DNA of 64,000 nt from Promethearchaeota archaeon (GTDB lineage Archaea; Asgardarchaeota; Lokiarchaeia; Sigyniarchaeales; SOKP01). Below, in pieces: positions 1 through 59,838 of this stretch; position 1 is the stretch's first letter; every line of letters begins with the position of its first letter. The translations under genes were made by a program, and so were the position numbers. Location of the stretch: positions 64,001 to 128,000 of the forward strand of contig JAHPZA010000003.1 in the NCBI GenBank assembly GCA_019058445.1. The letters are read 5' to 3'. A model generated the notes under the pieces. That model saw nothing but the letters and a program-made list of their open reading frames with translations. It did not search any database and was not told the DNA's origin.

Positions 1-495
1 ATGCAGCGCGGCACTAAAGAGTGCTGTTGCATTAATTTCGGGGTATTATCTGAAATAATTGAGAAAATTCCTCGATATATTCCAAAGGATCGCGTAGTGA
101 GGATAGATCGGGAAACGGCTATGGAACGTTTGGAAGAGCATAATAAAAAAGGCTATATTGCCTCTGTATGGTTTCAACCAGTACCATATATCAATGCAAT
201 ATGTTCTTGTGAAAGCCCTGAATGTGGAGGGCTCCGTTTGAGAACTAGTTTTGACTTAAATGCATTTTATAAAGCAGAATATATCATTCAATTAGATCAA
301 GATAAATGTCAGGGATGTAAACAATGTGTGTCCATGTGCCAATTTGGTGCATTGCGCTATATACCCTCTCAAAAAAGAGTTATCGTGGATTACGATAAAT
401 GCTTCGGATGTGGAGTTTGCAGACATGCGTGTAATAATGATGCGCTGAAACTAATCCCACGAGAAGAATTCCCTGGATGGGATGGAACATATTAG
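1..495 (+). CDS. 4Fe-4S dicluster (ferredoxin) domain protein, probably 5'-partial
   Basis: Two CxxCxxCxxxC motifs (CQGCKQCVSMC, CFGCGVCRHAC) plus ICSC..C. Begins at the window edge. Confidence 0.8.
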   Translation: MQRGTKECCCINFGVLSEIIEKIPRYIPKDRVVRIDRETAMERLEEHNKKGYIASVWFQPVPYINAICSCESPECGGLRLRTSFDLNAFYKAEYIIQLDQDKCQGCKQCVSMCQFGALRYIPSQKRVIVDYDKCFGCGVCRHACNNDALKLIPREEFPGWDGTY

Positions 496-37059: not shown

Positions 37060-38574
37060 TTAGGAGATGTATCTTAAAAGTAAATCGCCAGTTCGATACA
37101 TAAAGTCGGGCATTAATTCATTTATCCTATCTTTTTTAATCTCATCATCCATTAAGAACAAGACAAAGAAATCATAATCTGCGATTCGTATTTTTTTAAA
37201 TAAGATTACGGAATCTGCAATTTTAAAAATAGATTCATCTTGCTTTAGAGCCCGAAATTCTGAAAAAATTTTATATAACATCGTAAATTGAGGTGCTGTA
37301 ATCTCAAAAATGTTTCTTAATTTACCATCATCAGCTTCCTCTCCAGGTGGTCGTATTTCTGATGATTTTAGCGCTTTCCATGAAAAAAAATCTGCTAATA
37401 CTAATCCCTCATTATTTAATAATAAAGATAAAGAAATATCTGCGCGGTTTGAAAATCTTTGGAGAATTAAATTAATTAATTTCCTATTAGGACTTAATTT
37501 TGAAATGCCCGAAGAAAAGGCTTGTAAAATACTAAAAATTGAAAATATACTGGTTATAAATATCTCAGGTTTCTTACTTGAGACAATCTCAATTAATTTT
37601 GCTTTTATATATTGAATATTTTCTTTAATTTCTTGGTTATTTACAATATCCTTATCTCCTTTAGAGAAAATAAATATAATAGGAGTATTCATCTTAAATT
37701 CTTTTAGCGCCACCATTATTTTTTGAAAATATTCAATACTTTCTTCAAATCGGGCTTTATTTTTAATATCAATAAAGTAAAAAAGGAGATCAGTTTCATA
37801 TAAATAAATTTGAGATTTTGTTAAATATTTTTGTCTCGAAGCTATTTGTCCACCTAAGTCCCATAAAAAAATAGAGGCTCCGAGTGCTTGTATGGATGTA
37901 ACATTAGCTCCTATAGTAGGTTTTAAACCGATTAGTTTAGAATATTTTCTATCAATAGACAATAAAAACGAGGTTTTCCCGCTGTCGTCAAGACCCGCAA
38001 AAACGACTTTAATTCTTGTTGCATGGGTAATTGGAGCGTATGGTTTTTTTTCTATTTCGATTAATTTTAAGAGTAAATCCTTAAAAAATGGTTCCATCAT
38101 TTCAGGAGATTTATACCCATTTGAAATTTCAAGATCCAATTTTAAGAGAAAGTTAAAGACCAGTGATTTAAGTTGAGTTAGATTATTATATAAAAAACTC
38201 CTCCTATTTCTATCAACCAGAATGGAAAAAGACGCGGCAGTGGGTTCCTTAGAGGTTTTAAATCTAATGAAATGAAAGATAGTCAAGGAAGTAAGATTAA
38301 AATCCGGAAACGGCAATATTGCAAAGTATGGTGCTTTATCTGGGTCCTTATGTAATTCGATATACTCTTGATCTCCAGCCATCATGCTTAGATTTTTTAT
38401 GGAAATCTGCGTATAATCTCTGTAGCTTAACTTAACTACATTTTCTAATTTTGATTGTTCTGCTTCTTCTTCAGAAACCTCTTTAGGAAACATATATATA
38501 GGTTGCGGACCAAATTTATCAAAAGCTGAAAAGAGAAGCCCTTCAATGACCGAATTTTCGATTAAATCTTCCAT
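37060..38574 (-). CDS. uDENN-like + Rag/Arf-like GTPase + roadblock-like protein
   Basis: FSAFDKFGPQP N-terminus, GLDDSGKT, LKPTIG, WDLGGQ, atypical G4 SKGD, TSIF, and C-terminal LLLNNEGLVLA. Confidence 0.8.
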   Translation of the reverse strand: MEDLIENSVIEGLLFSAFDKFGPQPIYMFPKEVSEEEAEQSKLENVVKLSYRDYTQISIKNLSMMAGDQEYIELHKDPDKAPYFAILPFPDFNLTSLTIFHFIRFKTSKEPTAASFSILVDRNRRSFLYNNLTQLKSLVFNFLLKLDLEISNGYKSPEMMEPFFKDLLLKLIEIEKKPYAPITHATRIKVVFAGLDDSGKTSFLLSIDRKYSKLIGLKPTIGANVTSIQALGASIFLWDLGGQIASRQKYLTKSQIYLYETDLLFYFIDIKNKARFEESIEYFQKIMVALKEFKMNTPIIFIFSKGDKDIVNNQEIKENIQYIKAKLIEIVSSKKPEIFITSIFSIFSILQAFSSGISKLSPNRKLINLILQRFSNRADISLSLLLNNEGLVLADFFSWKALKSSEIRPPGEEADDGKLRNIFEITAPQFTMLYKIFSEFRALKQDESIFKIADSVILFKKIRIADYDFFVLFLMDDEIKKDRINELMPDFMYRTGDLLLRYIS

Positions 38575-42304: not shown

Positions 42305-43657
42305 ATGAGTGGAGATAGTAAATTATCACATATTAAGGGATTTTTTATTTTACACCAATATTGGTTAATACGCTATTTTAATATTCTCTTTATTTCTATA
42401 ATTTTGGGTGTAGTGTGTGGGTTTTCAATGGTTCTTTTTAATTATATGTTAATATATTTTAAATCAAACATGAGCACATTTTTACCCTATTTCATCTCTC
42501 CCTTAATTGCTGGATTACTCACAAGTCTATTAGTGAAATACGGACATGCTAATAGAGTAATGGGAACAGGTGCCGATGCTTATGTTGAAGATATAAATAG
42601 ACCAGATGAGGAATATCTTGAACAATCTAAGATGGGACTTCGTAGAAAGCAAAATTTATTTAGTAAAACGTTAGCTACAGGATGGACATATGGCTCTGGA
42701 ATGGTGTGTGGTTTAGAAGGACCAGGGCTCCTTATTGGAGGAAATTTAGGATATATTTTTTCTCGGGCAGAGAAATTTCACATAGATCGTTTAGATGCGT
42801 TTTTTATAGGAGCGAGTGCATGTACTGGTGCAATACTCAAAGCTCCAATTAGCGGAGCGCTGTTTTGTGCAGAATTGCCTTACTTTAATCATATCAGATA
42901 CAAATCTTTAATCCCCAGCATCATTGCTTCAACCGTAGCCTACTTCATTTTCTGTAGTTTTTTTGAATTCACTCCACTAATTAAAATTGATACATTATCA
43001 GTTAGACCTGATCAAGTCAATTACTTATACTTATTACCTCTTTTGGTTTTTTTTGGGATTGTTTCTGGATTACTTGTATTACTCTTAATGAGTTTATTGA
43101 GAGCATTTACAAATAAATTAAAAGAGTTATTTGAAACCAAACCCGGATTATGGATATTACCATTTTTAGGTGCTGCTGGATATAGCTTATTCCTCTTGAT
43201 TGTAATTCCATTTTTACCAGAGAATTATAGAAATTTACTTATTGGCCCTGATGCTTCTTTTTTAAATTATTTAATTAGAGTGTTTAACGCCTCTACAATC
43301 AGTTGGGAGTTCCTTTTTATATTAGCAATATTATTTACCATAGCCATCTTTTTATCAATAGGTACGATGAATAGCGCAGGAATTATAATGCCCCTTATGA
43401 TTTTTGGAGCTATTATAGGGGGACTCTTTGGAGTGTTGTTTTACCCCCAAAATCCAGAATTATTTGTATTATTAGGGATTTCAGCATTCCTAGGAGCTGC
43501 GTTAAATAGCCCCATAGCAGCAATTTTTATCATAATTGAATTAACATGGATACCTTTTTTGCTGATTCCTGCAAGTATTACAACTTTAATTGCATATATT
43601 TTTAGTGGCCCAAGCTCTATAATTCCAGGTCAAAAAAATGTTATAGAAAAGAAATAA
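42305..43657 (+). CDS. ClC family chloride channel/transporter
   Basis: GLEGP (gating Glu), KAPISGALFCAE, GIIMP, NSPIAAIFIIIELT. Many TM segments. Confidence 0.88.
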   Translation: MSGDSKLSHIKGFFILHQYWLIRYFNILFISIILGVVCGFSMVLFNYMLIYFKSNMSTFLPYFISPLIAGLLTSLLVKYGHANRVMGTGADAYVEDINRPDEEYLEQSKMGLRRKQNLFSKTLATGWTYGSGMVCGLEGPGLLIGGNLGYIFSRAEKFHIDRLDAFFIGASACTGAILKAPISGALFCAELPYFNHIRYKSLIPSIIASTVAYFIFCSFFEFTPLIKIDTLSVRPDQVNYLYLLPLLVFFGIVSGLLVLLLMSLLRAFTNKLKELFETKPGLWILPFLGAAGYSLFLLIVIPFLPENYRNLLIGPDASFLNYLIRVFNASTISWEFLFILAILFTIAIFLSIGTMNSAGIIMPLMIFGAIIGGLFGVLFYPQNPELFVLLGISAFLGAALNSPIAAIFIIIELTWIPFLLIPASITTLIAYIFSGPSSIIPGQKNVIEKK

Positions 43658-43739
43658 ATGAAAGAATATATTAATTATTGCTAATTACTTCAGTAAATTT
43701 TTATTAGATTGTAGTTTTTACGTTAATAGTGAATAAGAT

Positions 43740-45098
43740 ATGGAAATTAAATTTCATTCGACTAATTATAATACGCCTGATGTAGATTTCAAGACAGCTA
43801 TCATTAGAGGACAAGCTTTAGATAAAGGTCTATATATGTTAAATGAAATCCCTAAATTGGAAAGCACACAAATTTTTTCATTTAAAGATTTAGAATTATT
43901 TGAAATTGGGAATATTGTACTGTCTAAAATTATTGGGAAAATAATACCGGAACAAAATCTTAAAGAAATTTTAGGTACTGCTTTAAACTTTAAGGTTCCC
44001 ATCGAAAAGATTTCCAATAATGATTATATTTGTTATTTAGATAAAGGTCCTACATGTAGTTTTAAGGATTTTGGTGCAAGGACATTAGCTCGGATGATGG
44101 AATATTTTCTTGAAAGTGAAGATAAAAATGCGGTAATTTTAACAGCAACTTCAGGAGATACTGGAGGGGCGGTTGCTCAAGCCTTTTATAAAATGAGGAG
44201 AATTAAAGTTGTTGTATTATATCCGAAAGATGAAATAAGCGATTTACAGAGAAAACAAATGACTACCCTTGGTCAAAATGTGACAGCCATAGGGATAAAT
44301 GGGAAATTTGATGATTGCCAAAGACTCGTAAAAACCGCATTCGCGGATTCTGATCTTAAACATATCAATCTTTCTTCAGCAAATTCCATAAATTTTGGAC
44401 GTCTCATGCCCCAAACTTTATATTATTTTTGGAGTTATTCCAGGGTTGTAGAAAATAAGGGTGAAAAAGTTATTTTTTCTGTACCTTCTGGAAATTTCGG
44501 GAATCTTATGGGAGGATTAATTGCATTTAGAATGGGTTTACCTGTAAGAAAGTTTATATCAGCTGTAAATGAGAACGATGAATTTCCGAATTATTTGGAA
44601 ACTGGAATTTATAAAAAAGTAGAACCCTCTAAGAAATGCATATCCAACGCTATGAATGTGGGGCATCCCTCAAATCTAGCTAGATTAATCGATTTATACA
44701 GAGGTCAGATCGATGAACTTGGGATTGTTCATAAAGACCCGGATTTGAACAAAATCCACCAAGAAATTGTTTCCTATTCAATTGATGATAATTTAACAAA
44801 AAAGACAATTGCAGATTTTTATCAGAAATATAAAAAAATAATAGAACCTCACGGAGCTGTTGGTTGGGCAGCATTGCAAAAATATAGAGAAATTTATCCT
44901 GAAAATAACAATTTTAAGGCAATTAATTTAGAAACAGCAGATCCAGCAAAATTCCCTGAAGAGATTATCTCGTTGATTAATATAACACCTAAAATACCCA
45001 ATTCATTAGAAATTATTCAAAATAAGGAAGAATTTCCAAATCAAGTAGAAGTTAATGAGTATAGGGATTTTAAAAAGTTCTTAAGAGAGAATTTTTAA
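43740..45098 (+). CDS. thrC: Threonine synthase
   Basis: GPTCSFKDFGAR (PLP Lys), ATSGDTG, SANSINFGRL, VPSGNFGN, EPHGAV, ETADPAKF. Confidence 0.95.
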   Translation: MEIKFHSTNYNTPDVDFKTAIIRGQALDKGLYMLNEIPKLESTQIFSFKDLELFEIGNIVLSKIIGKIIPEQNLKEILGTALNFKVPIEKISNNDYICYLDKGPTCSFKDFGARTLARMMEYFLESEDKNAVILTATSGDTGGAVAQAFYKMRRIKVVVLYPKDEISDLQRKQMTTLGQNVTAIGINGKFDDCQRLVKTAFADSDLKHINLSSANSINFGRLMPQTLYYFWSYSRVVENKGEKVIFSVPSGNFGNLMGGLIAFRMGLPVRKFISAVNENDEFPNYLETGIYKKVEPSKKCISNAMNVGHPSNLARLIDLYRGQIDELGIVHKDPDLNKIHQEIVSYSIDDNLTKKTIADFYQKYKKIIEPHGAVGWAALQKYREIYPENNNFKAINLETADPAKFPEEIISLINITPKIPNSLEIIQNKEEFPNQVEVNEYRDFKKFLRENF

Positions 45099-45212
45099 AT
45101 AAAAAATATTTTTTGCCTATTTTACTATCTGCTTTTTGAATACTTTAAAGTTAAATTTGATAAATTGATTACTAATATATTAGAGTAATTCGCAGAAATT
45201 AGGGGAAATATT

Positions 45213-47747
45213 TTGAATATTATAGTATTGAGCTATTTTGATCATATTTTTGGTCCAAAAATATTTATGAAAACACCAAAATCATTTGATGATGAGGAAA
45301 TTAATCAAATTCCTGTACTCATTGATATGTATGAAGAAGGATTTTTTATTCACATATTTGGGGGATTTAAAAGTGCTAATTATTTTTTTGAAATAAATAG
45401 TCCTATTGCGCGTGGCGGTACTGAAAGATTACTTCTATCGATCTTAACAACAGAAGGAGAACTCAATCAAGAATTGTTAAAAGAATTATTAGAAAGATTT
45501 ATTAATGAAATACAGCAAATTCCAGACATTTATAGTGCATTTTATTCCACTAAAAACTCAGAAAATAAAGCTCAAGCGAAATATACCCAGTTAGATAATC
45601 TCATGAATACATTCTATGAGCATCTACCAAAAGATGTGGCTATCATTAAACGTCGTAAAGCGAAAATTTTTATATTCGGACCCTCTAAAGCAGGAAAAAC
45701 AACGATAATAAACTGTCTTCGAAACGAATTCGATAAAACCACACTACCTACAACTAGTATGAGCATCTCAAAATTACTTATTGGAAGTCTTGAATTTTTA
45801 ACTTATGATGTTCCTGGACAAACTAAATTTCAAAAATTGTGGCTCCCCTACTTAAAAAATCAAGATGGATTGGTGTTTGTTTTTGATATCACTGATAAAG
45901 AAAGATATGAAGAGGCAAAAGAAATGTTGCATCGAGTAGTCACTATGCCTCAAACAAAAAATTTACCATTACTCATCCTATTCAATAAAGTAGATTTAGG
46001 TACTCCTGATGTCTTATCTATTGAGAAAGCAGTCGGTATTCCTGAATTAGGAAAACGACATTTCAAATGTTTTCTCACAAGTGGTTTAATTAATGAAGGT
46101 GTGGCAGAAGCATTTGATTGGTTTGCTGAAACTATCGTAAATCGATTAATGCCTTCACGATTTACTGAAGTAAATTGCATATTTGCGAAATGGGATGAAG
46201 ATGAGGGGCCCCAGATAATTTCAGAATATCCTGCACATTCTTTTGAGGATGCTGAGAACGTTGCAATAGAGAGTTTTTCTTTATCTCAATTCGTATTTGG
46301 GGGAAAGGAATTCAAAAAAACCTCCTTTATTATGCCGTTTGTTCATTTGAATTCGAGGGCATCAATGCTGTTTGATTATATTCCCGATGAAAATGTTCGA
46401 GGAGGTAGATTACCACTTCTATTAGCTATTTTTTTCAATAATACAATTCCTATGCCTATCATTGAGCAATTTAATGTTTTTATTTTTGAGAAGTTTTCAT
46501 TGATTAAAAATAACTGGTCCCATATTCAAATTGTAGAAGAAAACCTTGAAGAAATAAGAAATGAAATTATAGAAAAATTAAAGAAAATTAAACCAACAGT
46601 TCATGCGATTAGAGTTGCTGAACGACGGTATGAATCACTCTTTAAAACAGCACGAGATGGAATCATAATTATTGATAGAAGACTCGGTATCATTGTTGAT
46701 GCTAATGAACAAGCAGAAATGATGTTAAAAAGTACAAAAGAAGATCTTATTGGGGCAAATATAAGTCAAATTCAGTCTGCTGATGAAAATATTGGGCTAA
46801 TGGATAGAATTCAGGAACAGCTTAACACTCTAAATAGTCCTCCTTTTATTTACTGGATTAAAGATATAGATTTAAAGTTTATTCCTGTAGAAATAAATGC
46901 TAGCCAGATTCAAATTGGTGGACAACATTTAATTCAATGCACTTTTAGAGATATAACAAATCGATTGAAAGCAGAAGAAGCACTAAAAGCAAGTGAAGAA
47001 CGACACAGAAGAATCGTCGAATTGAATCCTTTTCCCATCATTATTTTTTCCAAAGGAAACGTAGAATATGTGAATCCGATGTTTATCGAACTTTTTGGCT
47101 ATTCATTAGAAGATATTCCTACGGGAAGAGAATGGTCCCGTAAGGCTTATCCAAATCCAGAGTATAGACATAAGGTGATTGCTGCGTTTAAAAATTATGA
47201 GGAACACCCTTATGACCCGAACCTTGGAATTGATCCCTATACTTTTGATGTAACCTGTAAGGACGGAACTATACGTAGAATCATATTTAACCCTGTATAT
47301 ATCGATAAAGACAAGCAATTTTTCATTTGTGAGGATATCACTGAACGCATTACAGCACAGAAGGCTCAAAAGGAGAGCGAGGAAAAACATAGGCGTATTG
47401 TTGAATTGAATCCATTTCCCATCATTATTTTCTCCAAAGGAAACATAGAATATGTGAATCCGAAGTTCATCGAACTTTTTGGCTATTCATTAGAAAATAT
47501 ATCAACGGGAAGAGAATGGTCCCGTAAGGCTTATCCAGATCCAGAGTATAGACATAAAGTAATCGCCGCTTTTAAAAATTATGAGGAAAATCCTTATGAT
47601 CCAAGCCTAGGTGTTGATCCATATACTTTTAAAGTTACCTGCAAGAACGGTTCTATACGTAAAATCATTTTTAATCCTGTAAATATCGATAAAGATAAGC
47701 AATTTTTCATTTGTGAAGATATCACTGAGCGAATGAAGAGCATTTAA
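45213..47747 (+). CDS. uDENN-like / Arf-like GTPase / uDENN-like / PAS x3 multidomain protein
   Basis: SYFDHIFGPKI..ARGG; GPSKAGKT, DVPGQ, NKVD, TSGL; AKWDEDEGPQI..VRGG; three PAS domains ending RDIT or EDITER. Confidence 0.85.
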   Translation: MNIIVLSYFDHIFGPKIFMKTPKSFDDEEINQIPVLIDMYEEGFFIHIFGGFKSANYFFEINSPIARGGTERLLLSILTTEGELNQELLKELLERFINEIQQIPDIYSAFYSTKNSENKAQAKYTQLDNLMNTFYEHLPKDVAIIKRRKAKIFIFGPSKAGKTTIINCLRNEFDKTTLPTTSMSISKLLIGSLEFLTYDVPGQTKFQKLWLPYLKNQDGLVFVFDITDKERYEEAKEMLHRVVTMPQTKNLPLLILFNKVDLGTPDVLSIEKAVGIPELGKRHFKCFLTSGLINEGVAEAFDWFAETIVNRLMPSRFTEVNCIFAKWDEDEGPQIISEYPAHSFEDAENVAIESFSLSQFVFGGKEFKKTSFIMPFVHLNSRASMLFDYIPDENVRGGRLPLLLAIFFNNTIPMPIIEQFNVFIFEKFSLIKNNWSHIQIVEENLEEIRNEIIEKLKKIKPTVHAIRVAERRYESLFKTARDGIIIIDRRLGIIVDANEQAEMMLKSTKEDLIGANISQIQSADENIGLMDRIQEQLNTLNSPPFIYWIKDIDLKFIPVEINASQIQIGGQHLIQCTFRDITNRLKAEEALKASEERHRRIVELNPFPIIIFSKGNVEYVNPMFIELFGYSLEDIPTGREWSRKAYPNPEYRHKVIAAFKNYEEHPYDPNLGIDPYTFDVTCKDGTIRRIIFNPVYIDKDKQFFICEDITERITAQKAQKESEEKHRRIVELNPFPIIIFSKGNIEYVNPKFIELFGYSLENISTGREWSRKAYPDPEYRHKVIAAFKNYEENPYDPSLGVDPYTFKVTCKNGSIRKIIFNPVNIDKDKQFFICEDITERMKSI
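46992..47735 (+). repeat. Intragenic tandem duplication of a PAS domain (384-nt period)
   Basis: ATTGAATCC occurs at 47021 and 47405. The two translated copies differ at about 16 of ~121 residues. Confidence 0.9.
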
Positions 47748-47902
47748 TTTTCATAATATTAAATGAGAGATTGGTAATATTAAAGGATAAATATCCTATT
47801 TACTAATTTTTTTATGATTTTTAAATTTTCATAAAATTATATATAAGAAACTATCTTATTGATCTCTTGAACTTTTTAGCAAACTTTTAGAGGTTAAGGA
47901 AG

Positions 47903-48850
47903 TTGGAGTATCTAAAAGAAGAGAAAATAATCTCAAAAAAGATTCTATTTACCGGATTGGATGATGCGGGGAAGACATCAATCATTCTCGCCCTTCAGAG
48001 AGAGTTTTCTAAAGTTGCCAATATTCAGCCAACAAGAGGGGCACAAAGACGGATATTTCAATTCTTAGGAAAGGAAATCAGTGAATGGGATCTAGGTGGG
48101 CAAACAACGTACAGAATCTCTTATTTAAAAAATCCAGACAAATTTTTTGAGGGAACAGAAATCGCAATATATGTTGTAGATATACAGAATCGCGAGAGAT
48201 TAGCTGAATCGTTAAGCTATTTAAATGATGTGATAGTTGAGTTTAAAAAATTACAAATTAATCCTCCGATTAATATCTTTTTCCATAAATATGACCCAAC
48301 TTTAATAAAAGCTACAAAAGATGAATTAGAAACCCTCATCTTAAATCTAAAAAAAAAGATTAATAACATAATTAACTATAATAAACTTTATTTCTTTGAG
48401 ACATCAGTCTATAGTTTACCATCTATTATGAATGCTATGTCTGAGATATTATTGGAATTATATCCAAAATCGAGGCTGCTCAAAAAGACCATAGAGGAGT
48501 TTGCCATAAAATTAAACTGTCAAGGAATAGTAGTTATTGATAAAAATTCTCTTATCATTGGTTCCTTTTTTAAAGATCATGAAACGGGTGAGATACTGAC
48601 CAGATCTATGCCGTATTTCTTAACGCTAAATGATAGTTTTCAGTTAGAAGGGGTTAGCCAAAAGAATCAAGACCAAATGGTGGTTCATAGATTTGGAAAA
48701 TACTTTTTATTTAAAGAAATTTTATTGAAAGAAAGTGGCGTTCCTTATTACATTCTCATAGTTAAAGGAGATAATCCTTGGGATCTTTATTTCAGTAGTA
48801 AAGATTTTCGAGCATTTATTCAGATGCTAAGAGATATAATTTATAAATAA
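47903..48850 (+). CDS. Rag/Gtr-like small GTPase with C-terminal roadblock-like domain
   Basis: GLDDAGKT, PTRG, WDLGGQ, G4 HKYD, TSVY...MSEILLELYP, GIVVIDKNSLIIG. Confidence 0.82.
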   Translation: MEYLKEEKIISKKILFTGLDDAGKTSIILALQREFSKVANIQPTRGAQRRIFQFLGKEISEWDLGGQTTYRISYLKNPDKFFEGTEIAIYVVDIQNRERLAESLSYLNDVIVEFKKLQINPPINIFFHKYDPTLIKATKDELETLILNLKKKINNIINYNKLYFFETSVYSLPSIMNAMSEILLELYPKSRLLKKTIEEFAIKLNCQGIVVIDKNSLIIGSFFKDHETGEILTRSMPYFLTLNDSFQLEGVSQKNQDQMVVHRFGKYFLFKEILLKESGVPYYILIVKGDNPWDLYFSSKDFRAFIQMLRDIIYK

Positions 48851-48993
48851 TCATTAGATCTGAAATAGGATTATTAATAATAATTAATAATCTTATGTGA
48901 TATGGATTATTCAAAAATAATTATAAAATACCATTGACTTTTAATTTTTAGAGTAATATTAATTATAGTGACATTAGACGGGATGAAATTTGC

Positions 48994-49932
48994 TTGGAAT
49001 ATTTAAGAGATGAAAAAGCAGAAACCAGTAAAATATTGTTTTCGGGTCTTGACGATGCGGGGAAGACTAGCATTATCTTAGCACTTCAAAGAGAATTTGC
49101 TAAAATTGCTAATATTGAACCTACAAAAGGTGCCCAGAGAAGGATGTTCGAATTTTTAGGTAAAAATATAAGCGAATGGGATCTTGGTGGTCAACAAACC
49201 TATAGAATTGCGTATTTGAAGAATCCAACAAAATATTTCACAGAGACGGAAGTTTTAATTTACGTAATTGATATTAAAAATAAACAAAGAATTCAAGAAT
49301 GCTTAAGTTATCTCCAAGATGTCGTAAATGAGTTTAGAAAGCTCGAAATAGAACCCCCTATATTCATTTTATTTCATAAATATGACCCTGCTTTAAGCAG
49401 AAGTATCTATGAACAAATAGATAAAACGGTGTTATATTTAAAAAATAAAATCCTTAGTATTCCAAATTATAATCAATTTTACTTCCGAAATACTTCAATA
49501 TATAATTTATCGACTATTATTAGTGCTATGTCGGAAGCATTATTAGCATTATATCCGAAAACAGATTTAGTTCAAAAAACAATTTATGAATTTGGTATTA
49601 AATCTAAGGCAGATGGAATAGCAGTAATAGATTCTAATTCATTAATTATAGGCTGGTTTTATAGGAATGAAGGTATGAAAGATATATTACTCGCATCTGC
49701 CCCTTATTTCTTAAGTTTAAATACTAGCTTCGATTATACAGAAGGCATGGAAGGTAATAATGAAAATAAAATGGTTATTCAAAGACATGGAAAATATTTT
49801 CTCTTCAGAAAATTTTCCCTAAACGAAGACCTAGAGCCATTTTATTTATTAATTTCAAAAGATACTCCTGAAATTAATAAGGATGATTTTAATGCTTTGA
49901 TAAACATTTTAACAGAGATTTTATATAAATAG
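48994..49932 (+). CDS. Rag/Gtr-like small GTPase with C-terminal roadblock-like domain (tandem paralog)
   Basis: GLDDAGKT, PTKG, WDLGGQ, HKYD, TSIY...MSEALLALYP, GIAVIDSNSLIIG. Confidence 0.82.
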   Translation: MEYLRDEKAETSKILFSGLDDAGKTSIILALQREFAKIANIEPTKGAQRRMFEFLGKNISEWDLGGQQTYRIAYLKNPTKYFTETEVLIYVIDIKNKQRIQECLSYLQDVVNEFRKLEIEPPIFILFHKYDPALSRSIYEQIDKTVLYLKNKILSIPNYNQFYFRNTSIYNLSTIISAMSEALLALYPKTDLVQKTIYEFGIKSKADGIAVIDSNSLIIGWFYRNEGMKDILLASAPYFLSLNTSFDYTEGMEGNNENKMVIQRHGKYFLFRKFSLNEDLEPFYLLISKDTPEINKDDFNALINILTEILYK

Positions 49933-50026
49933 CTCATCGGTTTTCATTCATAATTCATTATAACTAGATTAATAAAATTGAATTTCTTTATTTATAGTAT
50001 TAAGAAAAGGAATAAATCAGAATACT

Positions 50027-51118
50027 ATGATAATTTGTAGCAACTGTGGTGCTATTAATAGTGATGAAAACAGTAGATTTTGCAGAAAGTGCGGTGCCTT
50101 ACTACCTGTGATTGCTAAGCCTTCGAAAATTCGAATACCAGCCCCAGGTTCAATAAGGCAAGAGCAAAAAATTGAGACTCCTGCTGTTAAAAATACTAGC
50201 GAGAATAAGGCTAAAATTAAGAATTCTACCCAGAATATTCCTTATGTAAATAGACAAGCGGGATTCTTTACCCCAAAATTAAAAAAACAAGAAAAACCGA
50301 CTCAATTAGAATTGCAAGAAATCCCACAACCTCCAACACAACAAACTACTCCTAAACAATCTGAGATTCCCCCTAAAATTATTAACACAGAGAATCTTAA
50401 AAGTGATTTAACTCAAATTCCTATTAAGACTTCGGAGCCTATTGAAACTGGAAGAAAAGAATTACTTCGGGAAATTGCTCCAAAACCTTTCGATGGAACA
50501 ATAATGCCCTCTAAAACTATATATGGACCTCCAAAAAAAGAGATAGAAAAAAGCTTTAGCAAAAAAACGAAACCAACTGAGAAAAAAACAGACGATTCAT
50601 TTTTAAAACAAAAGCAGTTAGAAATAGATATGACAGACGTTTTAGCTGTTCTCTCAAAAAAGTTATCTATTTCAAGGGAAGAAAACTCCAAACTAAAACC
50701 TTCCAAAACTCAAGAGGTGGAAAAGGAGATTGTCCCCGCAAGTATGAGTGAGATTTTAACCCAGCTTTTAAATTTAGATAAGTTTATTGAAGCATCCGCA
50801 CTAATAAAAGCAGATGGGACAATACTTGCTTCGGCATTATCGAATAGGATTTCTGACTCTTTATTTTTAACCATTGGTCAGAATCTTACTATGATTGGAA
50901 CTGACATTATAGGAGGCCTAAGTGCTGGAAAACTAAGATCAATATCTATACGAGGTACTGAAGGAGTCTTTGATCTAGCGCCTATCGATAAAAAAATTCC
51001 AGAGTTGTCCGATATGATCCTTATGATCTTCAGTCATCCCAGAGTGAAACCGGGTATTATATCTTTTGCAGTAAATTTGGTTAAGAAACAAATTAAAGAG
51101 TATCTTGGAATTAAATAA
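50027..51118 (+). CDS. Zinc-ribbon + Pro/Lys-rich linker + roadblock domain protein
   Basis: CSNCG...FCRKCG, low-complexity linker, IEASALIKADGTILASA...LRSISIRGTEG. Confidence 0.8.
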   Translation: MIICSNCGAINSDENSRFCRKCGALLPVIAKPSKIRIPAPGSIRQEQKIETPAVKNTSENKAKIKNSTQNIPYVNRQAGFFTPKLKKQEKPTQLELQEIPQPPTQQTTPKQSEIPPKIINTENLKSDLTQIPIKTSEPIETGRKELLREIAPKPFDGTIMPSKTIYGPPKKEIEKSFSKKTKPTEKKTDDSFLKQKQLEIDMTDVLAVLSKKLSISREENSKLKPSKTQEVEKEIVPASMSEILTQLLNLDKFIEASALIKADGTILASALSNRISDSLFLTIGQNLTMIGTDIIGGLSAGKLRSISIRGTEGVFDLAPIDKKIPELSDMILMIFSHPRVKPGIISFAVNLVKKQIKEYLGIK

Positions 51119-51195
51119 CATTTTTAACTATTAGTTTTAATTGAATTGTTTACTTTTTTTAATAATTAAAACCGATTATTATTATTGGATATAAT

Positions 51196-51870
51196 TTGAT
51201 ACATAAAAATGGACATAATATGAGTATTCCAGATTTTATAAAAAATGAAACTACCGGATTATATAAGCATGAAAAAAGCTTTGACTCAATTCTCGGAAAG
51301 GAAAGAATAACAATATTCGTTCCTGAAAGGTTCAAAGTAAATGATTCATACTGGAACCAGTTCATACCAGATAATAAACTTCGACCAGCCTCTATTACTA
51401 AGGGAGAAAGAGAATATAAATATGTGGGTAAGGAGATTATTCACATCTCTTATGATTTAGAACCTAAGATCGAACAACGCCCTGATATTAGGAAAGTGTC
51501 TACTTGTCCCCACCCTAATTGTGTTTATTGCCTTCAAATCAAGAAATTAAAAACCCATTTTGAAAATGGAATTTATAGAACGATTAATGTTGGAGATTAT
51601 TTCTCATTTTCCGCAAACGCTAATCTAATCCAAGCTACGCTTTGGGTTGAACAAGGTAAAGCTCAAATTCATGCTTACGAGGGAAATAGAGTGTTTATGA
51701 AATCAGAGATTATAGATAAACATAATCCCGCGAGTGTTTCTTCATTTGGAAGGAGAACTTTGAGAACAATAAAGATTTACTCAATTCCAGATGAATCTGA
51801 ATTAGAAACGGATAATTTTACTCGGCTATGGGTCCATCTTAATCGCTATAATATTGAAAGTTGGCCCTAA
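51196..51870 (+). CDS. Hypothetical protein
   Basis: 224-aa ORF containing CPHPNCVYC. The start may be ATG 51220. Confidence 0.6.
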   Translation: MIHKNGHNMSIPDFIKNETTGLYKHEKSFDSILGKERITIFVPERFKVNDSYWNQFIPDNKLRPASITKGEREYKYVGKEIIHISYDLEPKIEQRPDIRKVSTCPHPNCVYCLQIKKLKTHFENGIYRTINVGDYFSFSANANLIQATLWVEQGKAQIHAYEGNRVFMKSEIIDKHNPASVSSFGRRTLRTIKIYSIPDESELETDNFTRLWVHLNRYNIESWP

Positions 51871-51888
51871 AAACAGTTATGAAACGAT

Positions 51889-52689
51889 TCACATTAATTT
51901 CTTCTGAATATTTACACTTTTTATTTTTATAATTTTATAATATTGTAGATATTTATGTAGTTCTTGTAAAAAAGTATTAAAATAATAGATAGAAACAAGA
52001 GGAACTTGATTATCATTAAGTTTATTAAAATTATCCTCTAATGTGACCATTATCGGTATAAGATTAAACGGTAAATAGTTCTTTAGATTAGGGTTTATCC
52101 CTAAAAGGCTATGGATAAGCTTAGAAAAAGCGTCGGGATTTTTTTCTAAAGCAATGATTCTCTGGTATTGCAAATTTGCTGCCTTATTCATTGAACTATA
52201 GGTATCCTTACGTTTCCATTGTTTTGCATCAATTAATAAGATAATGTTGCGATTTAGGCCTATAACATCGATTTCATATCTTTTTTGAGATGTCTTGTAT
52301 TTAAAGTTAGATTTATCTGAAAATCTGAAATTATTCAATACCTTAAAATTATTTCTAGATAAAATTTTATTAATTAATAATTCAAATCCAGTAAAATCCA
52401 GAAGTTCCGCTACCGATTTTATATCTAAATTTAAGACTTTTATAGATTCCATAACAAACAGGATTTTATTTATTGAAATGTAATTAATTTTATAATTTCC
52501 TTTTTTCATTTCTATGAAATTGAAGTTTAGTAAAAACTCAGTAAGCTCATATTTATCCAAATTATTCAAAAAACTGATTTCGGAGATTTCAAACCACACT
52601 TCAGTAGCTTTTTTGTCTGTATCTTTTAAAATTGCATAAATTTCATAAAAGAATTGTTTAATCGATACAGTAGAATATAAATTAGCCAT
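51889..52689 (-). CDS. PD-(D/E)XK restriction-endonuclease-like (Mrr/NERD-type) protein
   Basis: FELLI..IL, YEIDVIG, LLIDAKQW. Confidence 0.7.
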   Translation of the reverse strand: MANLYSTVSIKQFFYEIYAILKDTDKKATEVWFEISEISFLNNLDKYELTEFLLNFNFIEMKKGNYKINYISINKILFVMESIKVLNLDIKSVAELLDFTGFELLINKILSRNNFKVLNNFRFSDKSNFKYKTSQKRYEIDVIGLNRNIILLIDAKQWKRKDTYSSMNKAANLQYQRIIALEKNPDAFSKLIHSLLGINPNLKNYLPFNLIPIMVTLEDNFNKLNDNQVPLVSIYYFNTFLQELHKYLQYYKIIKIKSVNIQKKLM

Positions 52690-52774
52690 ATTTAATTAGA
52701 GCTATCTTAAAACTTTAAAAAAAAAGAGAGTTCTAGAAAAGTAAAACAATAAGGTAGAATTAGGGTTATATCTC

Positions 52775-55051
52775 TTATCTACTCTTTTCGGCAAGATAGA
52801 CATCATAAAACCAATCCACTATGTATTGGAAGAAAAATCGTTCTCGAAGAACGTCATAGTGTGATTTTTGTCTTAAAGATGTCATTTTTGCGATATCCTC
52901 TGATTTCATTTCATTTTTCGAAATTAAATCCATCCGAGTCTTGAATTGATCTTCCATTTTAATTTCCCTAAGGATATTGTTCATCGCATTTGTAATATCA
53001 TCGATTAAGGTTTCAAATTCGATATTTATCTTAAGTATCTCATCTCGTTGAGTATCTTTAGAAAGAAATTCTTTTATTTTCCTTAAAATTCTATTTTTTT
53101 TATAATAATTAATAAGTTCATTCTGATCAAGAATTTCTAACAAATATTTTGTTATTTTATGAATAACATCAATATGTACTTTAAACTCTTTTAATTCTTT
53201 TTCCAATCTGACTAGAAATTGCTGTTTTAAAAATTGTTTATATTTCACAATTATAGCTTCATTCTCTTTAGCATCACTACAGATTTCAATTACTTCTCCT
53301 TTAGGTGTGGAATAAGTAAAACCATGTCCTTGGGGACCGAGCCCTCCCAACAAAACCATTGAGAGAGAATAAAACTTATAGTTATTTTTGGATAAGAACT
53401 TCTCAATATTTTTAAATATAACATCAGGTGCTACCAAGTGTTTTTTAACAATGGTGTAGGGATCTCGTTCATATTCGATATAAAAATATGCTTGATAATT
53501 ATATGAGATTGGAAATTCCATAAAATCATCCATCAATTTATCTTTATTTTTTAGATATTGCTTTCTAAACTCATTTATGAAACTTTTTACTGAGCTTAAA
53601 TATCGCACAGACAATCCATAGATGGAATATTGATTAAAGAAAATATTCTTAATATAAAACGCCAGTTGATCCCAATCTTGTATATATGATGATTGAGCTC
53701 CTATAAAGAATTGATATATTTGTTGAGGGATGATCTTTCTAATGAATAAAATAAAAGAATCAGATACTACTTCTCCAAATAAATCATGGAAGTTGCTCAT
53801 TAGGAGAGTATCTTTTTTAAGATTTTCAATAAGTTTTATATCATCTTCTTTTAAATTTCTCTCAAATAAGTTATAATCATTACAAAAACGAAGGATTTCA
53901 ATTTGTTTTCCTAAACTCGAAGTTTGATAACCTTCGCTTACTTCTCTTATACAATCTAAAATAAGGGTAGAAATTATTTCAAAACGATTCGGTATTTTTT
54001 TAACGTCAATAAAAATGTCAAAATCGATAGAAGAATCCAGCATAAGTCTAAAATTTTCAAACTTTTGTGCTCTGAGATTATGTCCAAGTCCTGTATAAAA
54101 ATTTTTCTCGATTTTTTTCTTGAATTTATTATTAGATGACAAATTTGTAATTTCAAAAAACTCATCATCTATTAGATTATCAATGGCGTATTTTATTTTA
54201 GAGATCTCCCCAGATTTTAGAGATTTGACGATTGACTCAACAATCATAAGATCGATGTCTTTAGGAATTTCACCATATTTTAAATTATAATATTTTTTAC
54301 CGATGAAAAAATCATAAAAATCTTGTCTATTTAATGATTCTTGTAAATTCTCAAGTAAAGCTGTTTGAAAATTACGCGGATCATTGGTAATTGCGTGATC
54401 TATGTCATTTTTCATTAGAATTTCATAAAGCATTACTAATGTATCCAGTGAGCCTTTATCTTTGAAAAAATCTAAGCAATCTGAAAATAGATAAAAGATA
54501 AAATCTTTATCCCTATTATTTTTAGGTTTTTCTTTGTTTAAATCTCTAATATTAAAATCTAACATCCATTTATTTAAATATATCAAAAATATAGGTAGAT
54601 ACTTAATATTTTGAAATACTTTTACGCTTCTTTGACAGTGTCGACAAAAATACACCGTTCTAGTTTCATCAAATGGACTATTAGTCTTATAAATATTAGG
54701 TGATTTGCAATTAAAGCATAATTTTTCAATAACTAATACATCTACAATGTCGTCAATGAATTTTTCAATAAAAATGTCGGTAATAGCAATTTCTTTTACT
54801 TTATTATCTTCTCGATAATGGTTTAAATATCTTAAAATAACCTTGAAAATATCTCCATATAATTCTAAGAGGTCGTAATCATTCGCAGCTTCGATTTTTT
54901 TCGTAAGTCTCTGAAATTCAGTGAGAAAATTCACATTATAACTGACTATTTCTTTAACAAGTTTTTCAAGGTCAATATCCTTTTTAGCAATTCCTTGCTT
55001 TATTTTTTGCTTTATTTCTTCAAAAAACTGATCAGCATCTGAATGTATCAT
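52775..55051 (-). CDS. Large hypothetical protein with zinc ribbon
   Basis: 758-aa ORF with CFNC...CRHC and a Gly-rich LGGLGPQGHGFTYSTP motif. Confidence 0.7.
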   Translation of the reverse strand: MIHSDADQFFEEIKQKIKQGIAKKDIDLEKLVKEIVSYNVNFLTEFQRLTKKIEAANDYDLLELYGDIFKVILRYLNHYREDNKVKEIAITDIFIEKFIDDIVDVLVIEKLCFNCKSPNIYKTNSPFDETRTVYFCRHCQRSVKVFQNIKYLPIFLIYLNKWMLDFNIRDLNKEKPKNNRDKDFIFYLFSDCLDFFKDKGSLDTLVMLYEILMKNDIDHAITNDPRNFQTALLENLQESLNRQDFYDFFIGKKYYNLKYGEIPKDIDLMIVESIVKSLKSGEISKIKYAIDNLIDDEFFEITNLSSNNKFKKKIEKNFYTGLGHNLRAQKFENFRLMLDSSIDFDIFIDVKKIPNRFEIISTLILDCIREVSEGYQTSSLGKQIEILRFCNDYNLFERNLKEDDIKLIENLKKDTLLMSNFHDLFGEVVSDSFILFIRKIIPQQIYQFFIGAQSSYIQDWDQLAFYIKNIFFNQYSIYGLSVRYLSSVKSFINEFRKQYLKNKDKLMDDFMEFPISYNYQAYFYIEYERDPYTIVKKHLVAPDVIFKNIEKFLSKNNYKFYSLSMVLLGGLGPQGHGFTYSTPKGEVIEICSDAKENEAIIVKYKQFLKQQFLVRLEKELKEFKVHIDVIHKITKYLLEILDQNELINYYKKNRILRKIKEFLSKDTQRDEILKINIEFETLIDDITNAMNNILREIKMEDQFKTRMDLISKNEMKSEDIAKMTSLRQKSHYDVLRERFFFQYIVDWFYDVYLAEKSR

Positions 55052-58434: not shown

Positions 58435-59838
58435 ATGACAAAAAATATTATTAAATCACTAATATTAAGCATTTTCGATGATGAGGGACCTACACCGAAA
58501 ATCTTTTGGCCTGAAAATTTGGATGAGGGTGCCAGACTTTTAATCGCTACTAAAACAATTAGCCTACTTATGGGTGATGTCATTTATCAAAATGGAGATA
58601 CTATCGATGATATAAATTATTTTGGGGTCCTTCCTTTCCCAGACTTAGGATTAAAAGCATTAACTTACTTCTTTTTAATCGCAGATGAAAATGCACGTGG
58701 AAATGCTATGGCTTCGACAATAACAGTTTTAATTGATGAGGAAAAATCAACCTTCTTTTATGAGAATATGAAATATTTGAGAGTGATAATTGATAAATCT
58801 GCTACAGAGATCCAAAATTGTGAAAAGGTTGAGGAATACCAAACCATTATGAATGCTCTAAGAGAGGAATTATTTGCCTTTTGTAATGACTTAAAAGATC
58901 CTTTTTCTTCACAAAGAAAAATCAAAGTGGTACTTGTTGGATTGGATAGAGCCGGTAAGACAAGTTTTCTCTTTGGAGTTAAGAAAAAATATTCTGAAAT
59001 CATAAAAACTTTACCCACTAAGGGAGTAGAGAGATCTGAAGAGACTATTTTTGAGGAACAAAATTCTCATATTTCAATATGGGATTTAGGAGGTCAAAAA
59101 AGATATCGTGAAAAATACCTGGAACAAAGCAAACTCTATCTTTATAATATAGATTTATTATTTTATCTAATTGATATTCAAGATTTTAGGAGAATGATGG
59201 ATTCAGTAGAACTTTTTTCAAATATCATTGAATCTTTGAAGGAACTAGATGAATACCCTCCGATTGTTATATGCTTGAATAAATACGATCCTGATATTAA
59301 AGGCACTGAAGAAATTAATAAAAATGTTGAAATAATTACATCTCAAATTGAAAGAAAAGCCGAAAAATTTTTCATTAAAATTTTTAAGACTTCCATCTTT
59401 GACTATTGGTCTCTCATTTCAGCATATTCTTACGGACTTTCTCAGTTGAGTCCCAATAGAGATTTCTTTAAAAATAGATTGAAAATATTTGCTGATAATA
59501 CTGATGCTGATGCATTATTATTACTAAATGAGAATGGTATAATCTTGTCCAGCTATTCCAAGAAGGAGATTCCAAGCAAGGTTTTCGAGATTTCTGCTCC
59601 ACACTTTCAGACTCTATATAAAACATTTAAAGAATTTCAACTTTTAAAAAATGATTATATTATCTCGTCTGGTTTGAAAACAGATTCAAAAAACATTATT
59701 TTTAAAAAAATTCAAGTTAATAAATATACTTTATATTTACTATTGTTCATGGAAGAGTACCATAGCATTGAGAAAATCGAAAAATTTTTACCAAATTTTT
59801 CCAATATTCTGACAGAACTAATAAGTTCTTACATTTAA
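58435..59838 (+). CDS. uDENN-like + Rag/Arf-like GTPase + roadblock-like protein
   Basis: SIFDDEGPTP..NARGN, GLDRAGKT, LPTKG, WDLGGQ, NKYD, TSIFD, LLLNENGIILS. Paralog of 37060..38574. Confidence 0.82.
   Translation: MTKNIIKSLILSIFDDEGPTPKIFWPENLDEGARLLIATKTISLLMGDVIYQNGDTIDDINYFGVLPFPDLGLKALTYFFLIADENARGNAMASTITVLIDEEKSTFFYENMKYLRVIIDKSATEIQNCEKVEEYQTIMNALREELFAFCNDLKDPFSSQRKIKVVLVGLDRAGKTSFLFGVKKKYSEIIKTLPTKGVERSEETIFEEQNSHISIWDLGGQKRYREKYLEQSKLYLYNIDLLFYLIDIQDFRRMMDSVELFSNIIESLKELDEYPPIVICLNKYDPDIKGTEEINKNVEIITSQIERKAEKFFIKIFKTSIFDYWSLISAYSYGLSQLSPNRDFFKNRLKIFADNTDADALLLLNENGIILSSYSKKEIPSKVFEISAPHFQTLYKTFKEFQLLKNDYIISSGLKTDSKNIIFKKIQVNKYTLYLLLFMEEYHSIEKIEKFLPNFSNILTELISSYI

Follow-up and report, generated by a model that had tools for sequence, protein, structure and literature searches.

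A Rag-like GTPase gene followed by a zinc-ribbon roadblock gene is conserved in one family of Lokiarchaeia and may encode a self-associating GTPase with a docking partner

A 64,000-nucleotide stretch of the genome of a Promethearchaeota archaeon (GTDB lineage Archaea; Asgardarchaeota; Lokiarchaeia; Sigyniarchaeales; SOKP01), positions 64,001 to 128,000 of contig JAHPZA010000003.1 in assembly GCA_019058445.1 and hereafter called the window, carries four plus-strand genes, P0001, P2, P3 and P4, whose open reading frames lie exactly where an initial annotation of the letters had placed them (Table 1). P2 and P3 encode Rag(Gtr)-family GTPases, P4 a Zn-ribbon protein with a roadblock domain, and P0001 a longin-GTPase-longin-PAS protein. 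The conserved unit at this locus is a pair, one Rag-like gene followed by P4. The gaps P0001-P2, P2-P3 and P3-P4 measure 155, 143 and 94 bp, and the threonine synthase gene thrC ends 114 bp upstream of P0001, which bears out the annotated position of the locus just downstream of thrC. The relatives used were 84 P4 loci (labels beginning with L) for synteny and a GTDB-balanced phylum sample of 200 genomes (labels beginning with G).

The reading of P2 and P3 as Rag-family GTPase-roadblock proteins stands. The two are 58% identical, share the N-terminus LEYL(K/R).EK, and pass the Pfam model Gtr1_RagA (PF04670) with 88.2 bits for P2 and 81.7 bits for P3 against a cut-off of 22. The motifs G1 (GLDDAGKTS), G3 (WDLGGQ) and G4 (FHKYD) are present in both and invariant in the family alignments, and the annotated HKYD is accompanied by TSVY...MSEILLELYP in P2 and TSIY...MSEALLALYP in P3. 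The closest solved structure, about 60% identical to either protein, is PDB 8yl2, released in 2025-09 under the title 'Homo Tetrameric RagA-like small GTPase from Asgard Lokiarchaeota (LokiRagO)'; a literature search for 8YL2 and LokiRagO found no paper. It matches P2 over residues 7-310 (E 3.9e-87) and P3 over nearly its full length (E 6.6e-80). Because 8yl2 aligns with P2 over this range and its residues 221-341 superpose on the roadblock fold (VIA Z 12.2 against the P4 domain), the C-terminal domains of P2 and P3 would, by homology, be roadblock domains. RagA and Gtr1 are the best eukaryotic matches of both proteins (E ~1e-12 for P2), and thus no A/C-type asymmetry is seen. Purifying selection acts on both genes as strongly as on thrC, with ratios of non-synonymous to synonymous divergence (dN/dS) of 0.04-0.065 for P2, 0.056-0.10 for P3 and 0.07 for thrC, which are approximate since dS is near saturation.

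In the window's own genome PF04670 has 46 matches and Robl_LC7 has 23. Two arrays of Gtr1_RagA-type genes, whose products measure about 415-510 aa, comprise three genes at C10:626.9-631.0 kb and at least six at C10:661-677 kb. A third close paralogue of P2 and P3 (C3:662539-663510, plus strand, 323 aa, 48% identical to P3) joins the P3 clade on a long branch and is not accompanied by a P4 gene.

P4 had been annotated as a Zn-ribbon-roadblock gene, and its roadblock domain, missed by Pfam, was recovered by structure through AlphaFold2 (AF2), Foldseek and VIA. The protein begins with a four-cysteine Zn-ribbon (residues 1-26, Pfam), continues through a disordered, basic, Lys/Pro-rich linker of about 160-200 residues and a helix at 188-212 (both AF2), and ends in the roadblock domain (237-360), which AF2 orders over residues 240-360 as alpha-beta-beta-alpha-beta-beta-beta-alpha. 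Foldseek matched this C-terminal domain to Asgard Roadblock, LAMTOR2 and MglB with probability 1.00, E ~3e-7 and TM ~0.7. VIA gave Z 12-13 (maximum 13.2) against the same set, in which the C-terminal domains of RagA, RagC and Gtr2 and residues 221-341 of 8yl2 were also included; the values were 12.3-12.6 for MglB and 12.5 for LAMTOR2. Pfam and NCBIfam found no roadblock family at the P4 C-terminus, and a whole-genome Robl_LC7 search was likewise without a P4 match. Inside the disordered linker, short motifs are invariant, namely L.EIP at about residues 96-100 and L.EI.P.PF.G at 147-157, and the helix motif LE.DM..VL..LS at about 198-210 is invariant as well. These linker and helix motifs, which together span window positions 50312-50656, look like docking motifs.

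A Rag-like gene lies directly upstream of P4 in 79 of the 84 P4 loci, as one copy in 74 and as two in five, at a median distance of 190 bp, and four of the five remaining loci are cut by a contig end. Synteny in relatives, which the initial annotation had proposed as a check, therefore upholds the order of a Rag-like gene followed by P4, whereas the tandem Rag pair is a feature of a sub-lineage and P0001 is variable. Within the window's GTDB family, 41 of the 45 sampled genomes have a match to the P4 profile, against 2 of the roughly 155 genomes that represent the rest of the phylum, and the Rag-P4 module was not found in the sampled Heimdall-side lineages. The titles of NCBI records (Thor-, Hod-, Hermod- and Odinarchaeota) had suggested a module spanning several Asgard phyla, which was discarded once GTDB-based sampling placed nearly all hits in one family. 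The module is family-level and not pan-Asgard. In pairwise identity, the Rag-like gene co-varies with the P4 roadblock domain (r=0.72, Mantel 0/2000) but not with adjacent thrC (r=0.29, Spearman -0.11). The order of genes around the pair does vary; of the 69 loci with enough flank, 26 (38%) have thrC as the gene next upstream of the Rag-like one.

Roadblock genes also accompany other members of the GTPase family. In a second, unlinked paralogue clade, a Robl_LC7/MAPKK1_Int (LAMTOR3/MP1-like) gene lies directly upstream of the GTPase gene, at L026:6205-6666 on the plus strand (154 aa, 27.9 bits against a cut-off of 25) and at nine loci besides, and is followed by one to three metallo-beta-lactamase-fold genes. 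With its own roadblock gene in this second clade, the GTPase family is roadblock-paired in two separate paralogue clades. Two further proteins, paralogous to each other and without a Pfam match (L029:2491-3570 and L029:3740-4801), are encoded upstream of a Rag-like paralogue; judged by their ends, they seem to combine a hydrophobic N-terminus with a roadblock- or longin-like C-terminal part, and could be a membrane-anchored roadblock pair. The full neighbourhood of Rag-like gene, P4 and 467-aa gene (Table 1) also occurs on L083 (DATKTW010000091.1), titled 'Candidatus Nanopelagicaceae bacterium', which is probably a mis-binned Asgard contig.

The P2-P3 tandem is present in three of the ten genomes of the window's genus (G000, G003 and G007) and, as a further case, on the metagenome contig L027. 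Other tandem Rag-like pairs occupy the same locus in L042/L058 and in L047, which fall in different parts of the tree; similar duplications thus arose here at least twice outside the window's sub-lineage. Within the tree, P3 groups with the single P4-linked genes (support 99/95) and P2 leans weakly to the unlinked paralogue clade (support 82/92). The identity of P2 and P3 (57-58%) is like that to any other clade (54-62%). We did not retain the idea that the pair is a simple duplication of recent, local origin, given this inter-clade level of divergence and the approximately unbiased (AU) test against P2+P3 sisterhood, in which p=0.0345 is marginal.

Table 1. Genes and candidate regulatory blocks of the locus, with window coordinates.
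Feature	Coordinates	Strand	Description
P0001	45213..47747	+	Longin, Arf-like GTPase (NKVD G4), longin, three PAS; variable neighbour
P2	47903..48850	+	RagGtr-family GTPase with C-terminal roadblock; 315 aa, TTG start
P3	48994..49932	+	P2 paralogue, 312 aa, TTG start; copy adjoining P4
P4	50027..51118	+	Zn-ribbon, disordered linker, roadblock; 363 aa
thrC (threonine synthase)	43740..45098	+	Pfam Thr_synth_N/PALP
467-aa gene	58435..59838	+	Longin, Rag-like GTPase, C-terminal part; Pfam Gtr1_RagA 89 bits
504-aa gene	37060..38574	-	Rag-like GTPase with N-terminal extension of 188 aa; Pfam Gtr1_RagA 75 bits
Block before P2	47826..47875	+	AT-rich, TATA-like (alignment); candidate promoter
Block before P3	48913..48964	+	~52 nt, AAAATAATTATAAAATA..., nearly invariant in 4 genomes; candidate BRE/TATA (transcription factor B recognition element and TATA box)
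Block before P4	49965..50011	+	Gap 91% identical among 4 genomes; candidate promoter

Between P2 and P3, and again between P3 and P4, lie AT-rich blocks that hardly vary and have a TATA-like core. The corresponding block of P2 does not change with the gene in front of it, being shared by the thrC-P2 gap of L001 and the P0001-P2 gap of the window. Judging from these blocks, P2, P3 and P4 may each have their own promoter. A scan for sigma-70 promoters and terminators returned counts at shuffle level, the model being uninformative for an archaeon, and an Rfam search of window positions 43000-53000 gave no match.

P0001 (844 aa) combines an Arf-type GTPase (residues 146-307, Pfam 1.6e-33, Z 26 to Arf6, NKVD as G4) with three PAS domains and no kinase. 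The flanks of the G domain had been annotated as uDENN. In the AF2 model (mean predicted local distance difference test, pLDDT, 80.8) they are longin-type domains of beta-beta-alpha-beta-beta-beta-alpha-alpha topology at residues 1-136 and 320-433, so that the assignment holds only in the sense of a FLCN/SMCR8-type longin; a core DENN/dDENN segment was found neither in the model nor by Pfam, and Pfam and NCBIfam gave no longin or uDENN family match on the flanks. In the AF2 model of both longins, strand beta2 opens with a G(P) and the beta4-beta5 loop bears an Arg. For longin 2 the family alignment keeps G332 in 29/29, R396 and G397 each in 27/29 and P333 in only 7/29 sequences, and hhalign pairs it with the GP/Arg longin of the 467-aa protein (Prob 90.9, E 1.2e-6) with GP and R-G in register; for longin 1, P15 is kept in 26/26 and R67 in 18/29. 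All 50 matches listed in a fold search with the model of residues 1-470 were GTPase matches. In the protein atlas, taken for leads only, the clusters nearest to the flanks are from Promethearchaeota (score 0.87-0.90), one of them with NPR2 in 19% of its members. The last two PAS domains are a recent internal duplication (window 46950-47249 and 47334-47633, period 384 nt) with 82% nucleotide and 84% amino-acid identity. In the embedded GTPase, switch-II residue 203 is Gln in 17/29 and Lys in 11/29 sequences, a variation that would fit catalysis by a longin Arg and not by an intrinsic Gln.

That P0001 belongs to the module, as first proposed, does not hold. The 87%-identical relative L001 lacks P0001, its thrC being followed after just 128 bp by P2 and then by P3 and P4, and L027 carries an orthologue that is 88% identical, 706 aa long and one PAS shorter. 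Since the gene is absent from L001 and present in L027 while the P2 block is unchanged, it is a variable insertion upstream of the P2 promoter region. Its family is widespread, with or without HATPase_c. The P0001 longins more plausibly act on their own embedded Arf-like GTPase.

The 467-aa gene is a steadier neighbour, since 65 of the 84 loci carry an orthologue (630-735 bits) downstream of P4 at a distance of 1-4 kb. Its N-terminal domain has a weak Pfam Folliculin match (residues 76-134), and G18-P19 and A87-R88-G89 are invariant in the alignment of its longin. A G(P) at beta2 together with an Arg loop is the signature of the longins of GTPase-activating proteins (GAPs) FLCN, NPRL2, SMCR8 and C9orf72, and it recurs in a class of Asgard longins for which the same study asks which GTPases they serve (Novak Vanclova et al., PMC12290439). 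It is accordingly the 467-aa gene, rather than P0001, that forms the conserved 'FLCN-like' neighbour of the Rag pair, and its product is a candidate longin GAP, in cis or in trans. The cis fusions suggest that Asgard GP-motif longins serve both Arf-like and Rag-like GTPases. The 504-aa gene has an orthologue upstream of P4, on the opposite strand, in 29 of the 84 loci.

From the domain identities, the conservation of the pair, its co-variation and the selection on its genes, all of them observed, we infer the physical contacts and activities proposed below. We consider it modestly probable that the core is a two-gene module of one Lokiarchaeial (GTDB) family, a RagGtr GTPase-roadblock gene plus P4, which works by self-association of the GTPase and docking of P4. 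Oligomers of the Rag-like proteins would be held together by the roadblock domains, on the pattern of Gtr1/Gtr2 and the solved orthologue. P2 and P3, by their descent from a self-associating protein, probably assemble with each other as well as each with itself. Onto these oligomers a P4 roadblock dimer would dock, in the manner of Ragulator if it binds the roadblock domains or of MglB if it binds the G domains, and the Zn-ribbon with its basic, motif-bearing linker would be an anchor or recruiting arm. P0001 would be a separately acquired sensor, whose two GP/Arg-type longins most likely act in cis on the Arf-like GTPase under PAS control.

The output of the proposed module would not be TOR. 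A search for PF00454 (PI3K/TOR-type kinase) in the window's own genome, which is 92.6% complete, gave no match, and Asgard archaea are reported to be without a TOR kinase homologue (Liu et al., 10.1101/2020.10.19.343400); with no TOR-type kinase found, the output must differ from the eukaryotic one. The role in nutrient sensing that the initial annotation gave the locus has the adjacency of thrC, seen in 38% of loci, as its sole basis and gains no support from the kinase search.

Several results weigh against the two-gene module as drawn. The comparison by hhalign of the P4 and P2 families, which could have linked their roadblock domains, was not significant (Prob 0.3, E 0.18). The solved orthologue is titled a homotetramer, and a heteromer is thus not needed for function. 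As conservation is inside one family, part of the synteny may be inherited order. A separate promoter-like block stands before each of P2, P3 and P4, so that an operon is putative at most. The marginal AU result leaves the ancestry of the tandem divided between two accounts, in that P2 and P3 may stem from a fast-diverging local duplication or from the juxtaposition of older paralogues.

Three other accounts of the locus can be compared with the two-gene module. In one, P2 and P3 are an obligate RagA/RagC-like heterodimer on a P4 scaffold, with the P0001 longins as its GAP, and amino-acid status is what it reports. Two diverged adjacent paralogues that are both under purifying selection would fit this account, as would the repeated tandem pairs of L042/L058 and L047, the eukaryotic precedent, the AF2 heterodimer of the MK-D1 pair (PMC10933270) and the presence of thrC and hom upstream. 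We nevertheless think it improbable, given that a single gene is the common state (74 of 84 loci), that 8yl2 is titled a homotetramer, and that both copies hold all G motifs and are RagA/Gtr1-like without the A/C-type asymmetry; moreover, P0001 is absent from L001 and has its own GTPase, no TOR/PI3K kinase was found, and thrC is adjacent in only 26 of 69 loci.

The account in which P2 and P3 form parallel, LokiRagO-like homo-oligomers with sub-functionalised inputs or partners, and in which P4 is an MglB-like GAP and not a scaffold, seems to us similarly doubtful. It draws on the homotetramer title of 8yl2, on the separate conserved promoter-like blocks before P2 and P3 and on the tree, where P3 sits with P4-linked singles and P2 leans to the unlinked clade, yet paralogues of self-associating proteins usually keep their cross-association. 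For P4, the match of its domain to MglB is as good as that to LAMTOR2 (Z 12.6 and 12.5), but no catalytic residue was identified. Very unlikely, finally, is inherited synteny without functional coupling, in which P4 works with other GTPases (46 Gtr1_RagA-type and 23 Robl_LC7 matches): confinement to one family, independent-looking promoters and the want of general GTPase-roadblock operons in MK-D1 (Tran et al., PMC10933270) would suit it, but adjacency persists in 79 of 84 loci while flanking genes vary, Rag-P4 distances co-vary unlike those to adjacent thrC, and a second paralogue is also roadblock-linked.

Beyond the two-gene module, a wider reading would join Rag-P4 and the nearby longin(GP/Arg)-Rag fusions into one family-wide archaeal Rag/Ragulator-like/longin-GAP system, with the Rag gene duplicated at least three times. 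We offer it tentatively and would not expect it to prove right. If true, the locus re-enacts the homodimer-to-heterodimer transition behind RagA/B-RagC/D in the eukaryotic stem, and the cis fusions show directly which GTPases the GP-motif longins serve.

Much of the setting is already published or deposited, namely the GTPase family, longin and roadblock fusions, the AF2 heterodimer of MK-D1 and the crystal structure of an orthologue (PMC10933270; 10.1101/2020.10.19.343400; 10.1101/2024.02.28.582541; PDB 8yl2). In the three papers among these we did not find the pair of a Rag-like gene followed by a Zn-ribbon-roadblock gene, or its co-variation, and neither did we find recurrent tandem duplications at the locus or a regular GP/Arg-longin-Rag fusion nearby. 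The Rag-P4 pair is a concrete, clonable candidate for asking whether Rag-roadblock docking predates eukaryotes, and the lineage-specific tandem copies are a natural experiment on the rise of heteromeric Rags. The meaning of the module, with its putative interaction and function, reaches as far as the one family to which it is confined.

Among known systems, the nearest is LokiRagO (8yl2), which has the same family and architecture as P2 and P3; there a homo-oligomer of one protein was crystallised, whereas here two diverged copies stand side by side. The likeness to RagA/B-RagC/D (Gtr1-Gtr2) lies in the HKxD form of G4, the GTPase with a roadblock C-terminal domain and the Gtr1_RagA family, whereas both copies here are RagA-like and no TOR kinase was found. 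As the eukaryotic Rag paralogues are two lineages that predate the last eukaryotic common ancestor and are nested among Asgard sequences (bioRxiv 10.1101/2024.02.28.582541), the P2/P3 duplication would be independent of theirs. With Ragulator/EGO the locus shares the fold of P4, which equals that of LAMTOR2/3 and of the Rag C-terminal domains; Ragulator (LAMTOR1-5) is a lipidated, membrane-anchored scaffold of five subunits to which the Rag C-terminal roadblock domains bind, in contrast to one Zn-ribbon roadblock gene without a LAMTOR1-like lipidation signal. In the Lokiarchaeon MK-D1 there are likewise two adjacent Rag-like GTPase-roadblock genes, which are operonic and for which AF2 predicts a roadblock-mediated heterodimer (Tran et al. 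2024, PMC10933270). That pair is probably not orthologous to P2/P3, since G026, a closed 4.4-Mb genome of a neighbouring family, yields a single match, with 44% identity to P3, and none for P4.

According to published surveys, Asgard Rag-like GTPases as a rule show no gene linkage with roadblock or longin partners (PMC10933270), and the GTPase in the one conserved roadblock-GTPase-DENN operon is not a Rag (10.1101/2020.10.19.343400). Bacterial MglA/MglB resembles the Rag-P4 pair in that a roadblock-fold protein is encoded beside its small GTPase, whereas MglA is without a roadblock domain of its own and P4 has a Zn-ribbon and a long linker. The predicted longins of P0001 and of the 467-aa protein share the G(P) at beta2 and the Arg-Gly in the beta4-beta5 loop with FLCN-FNIP, GATOR1 (NPRL2-NPRL3) and C9orf72-SMCR8. 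They differ from these longin GAP complexes in that they show no DENN core, have a GAP role as candidates only and are fused in cis to a GTPase, either as two longins around an Arf-like G domain or as one longin before a Rag-like G domain.

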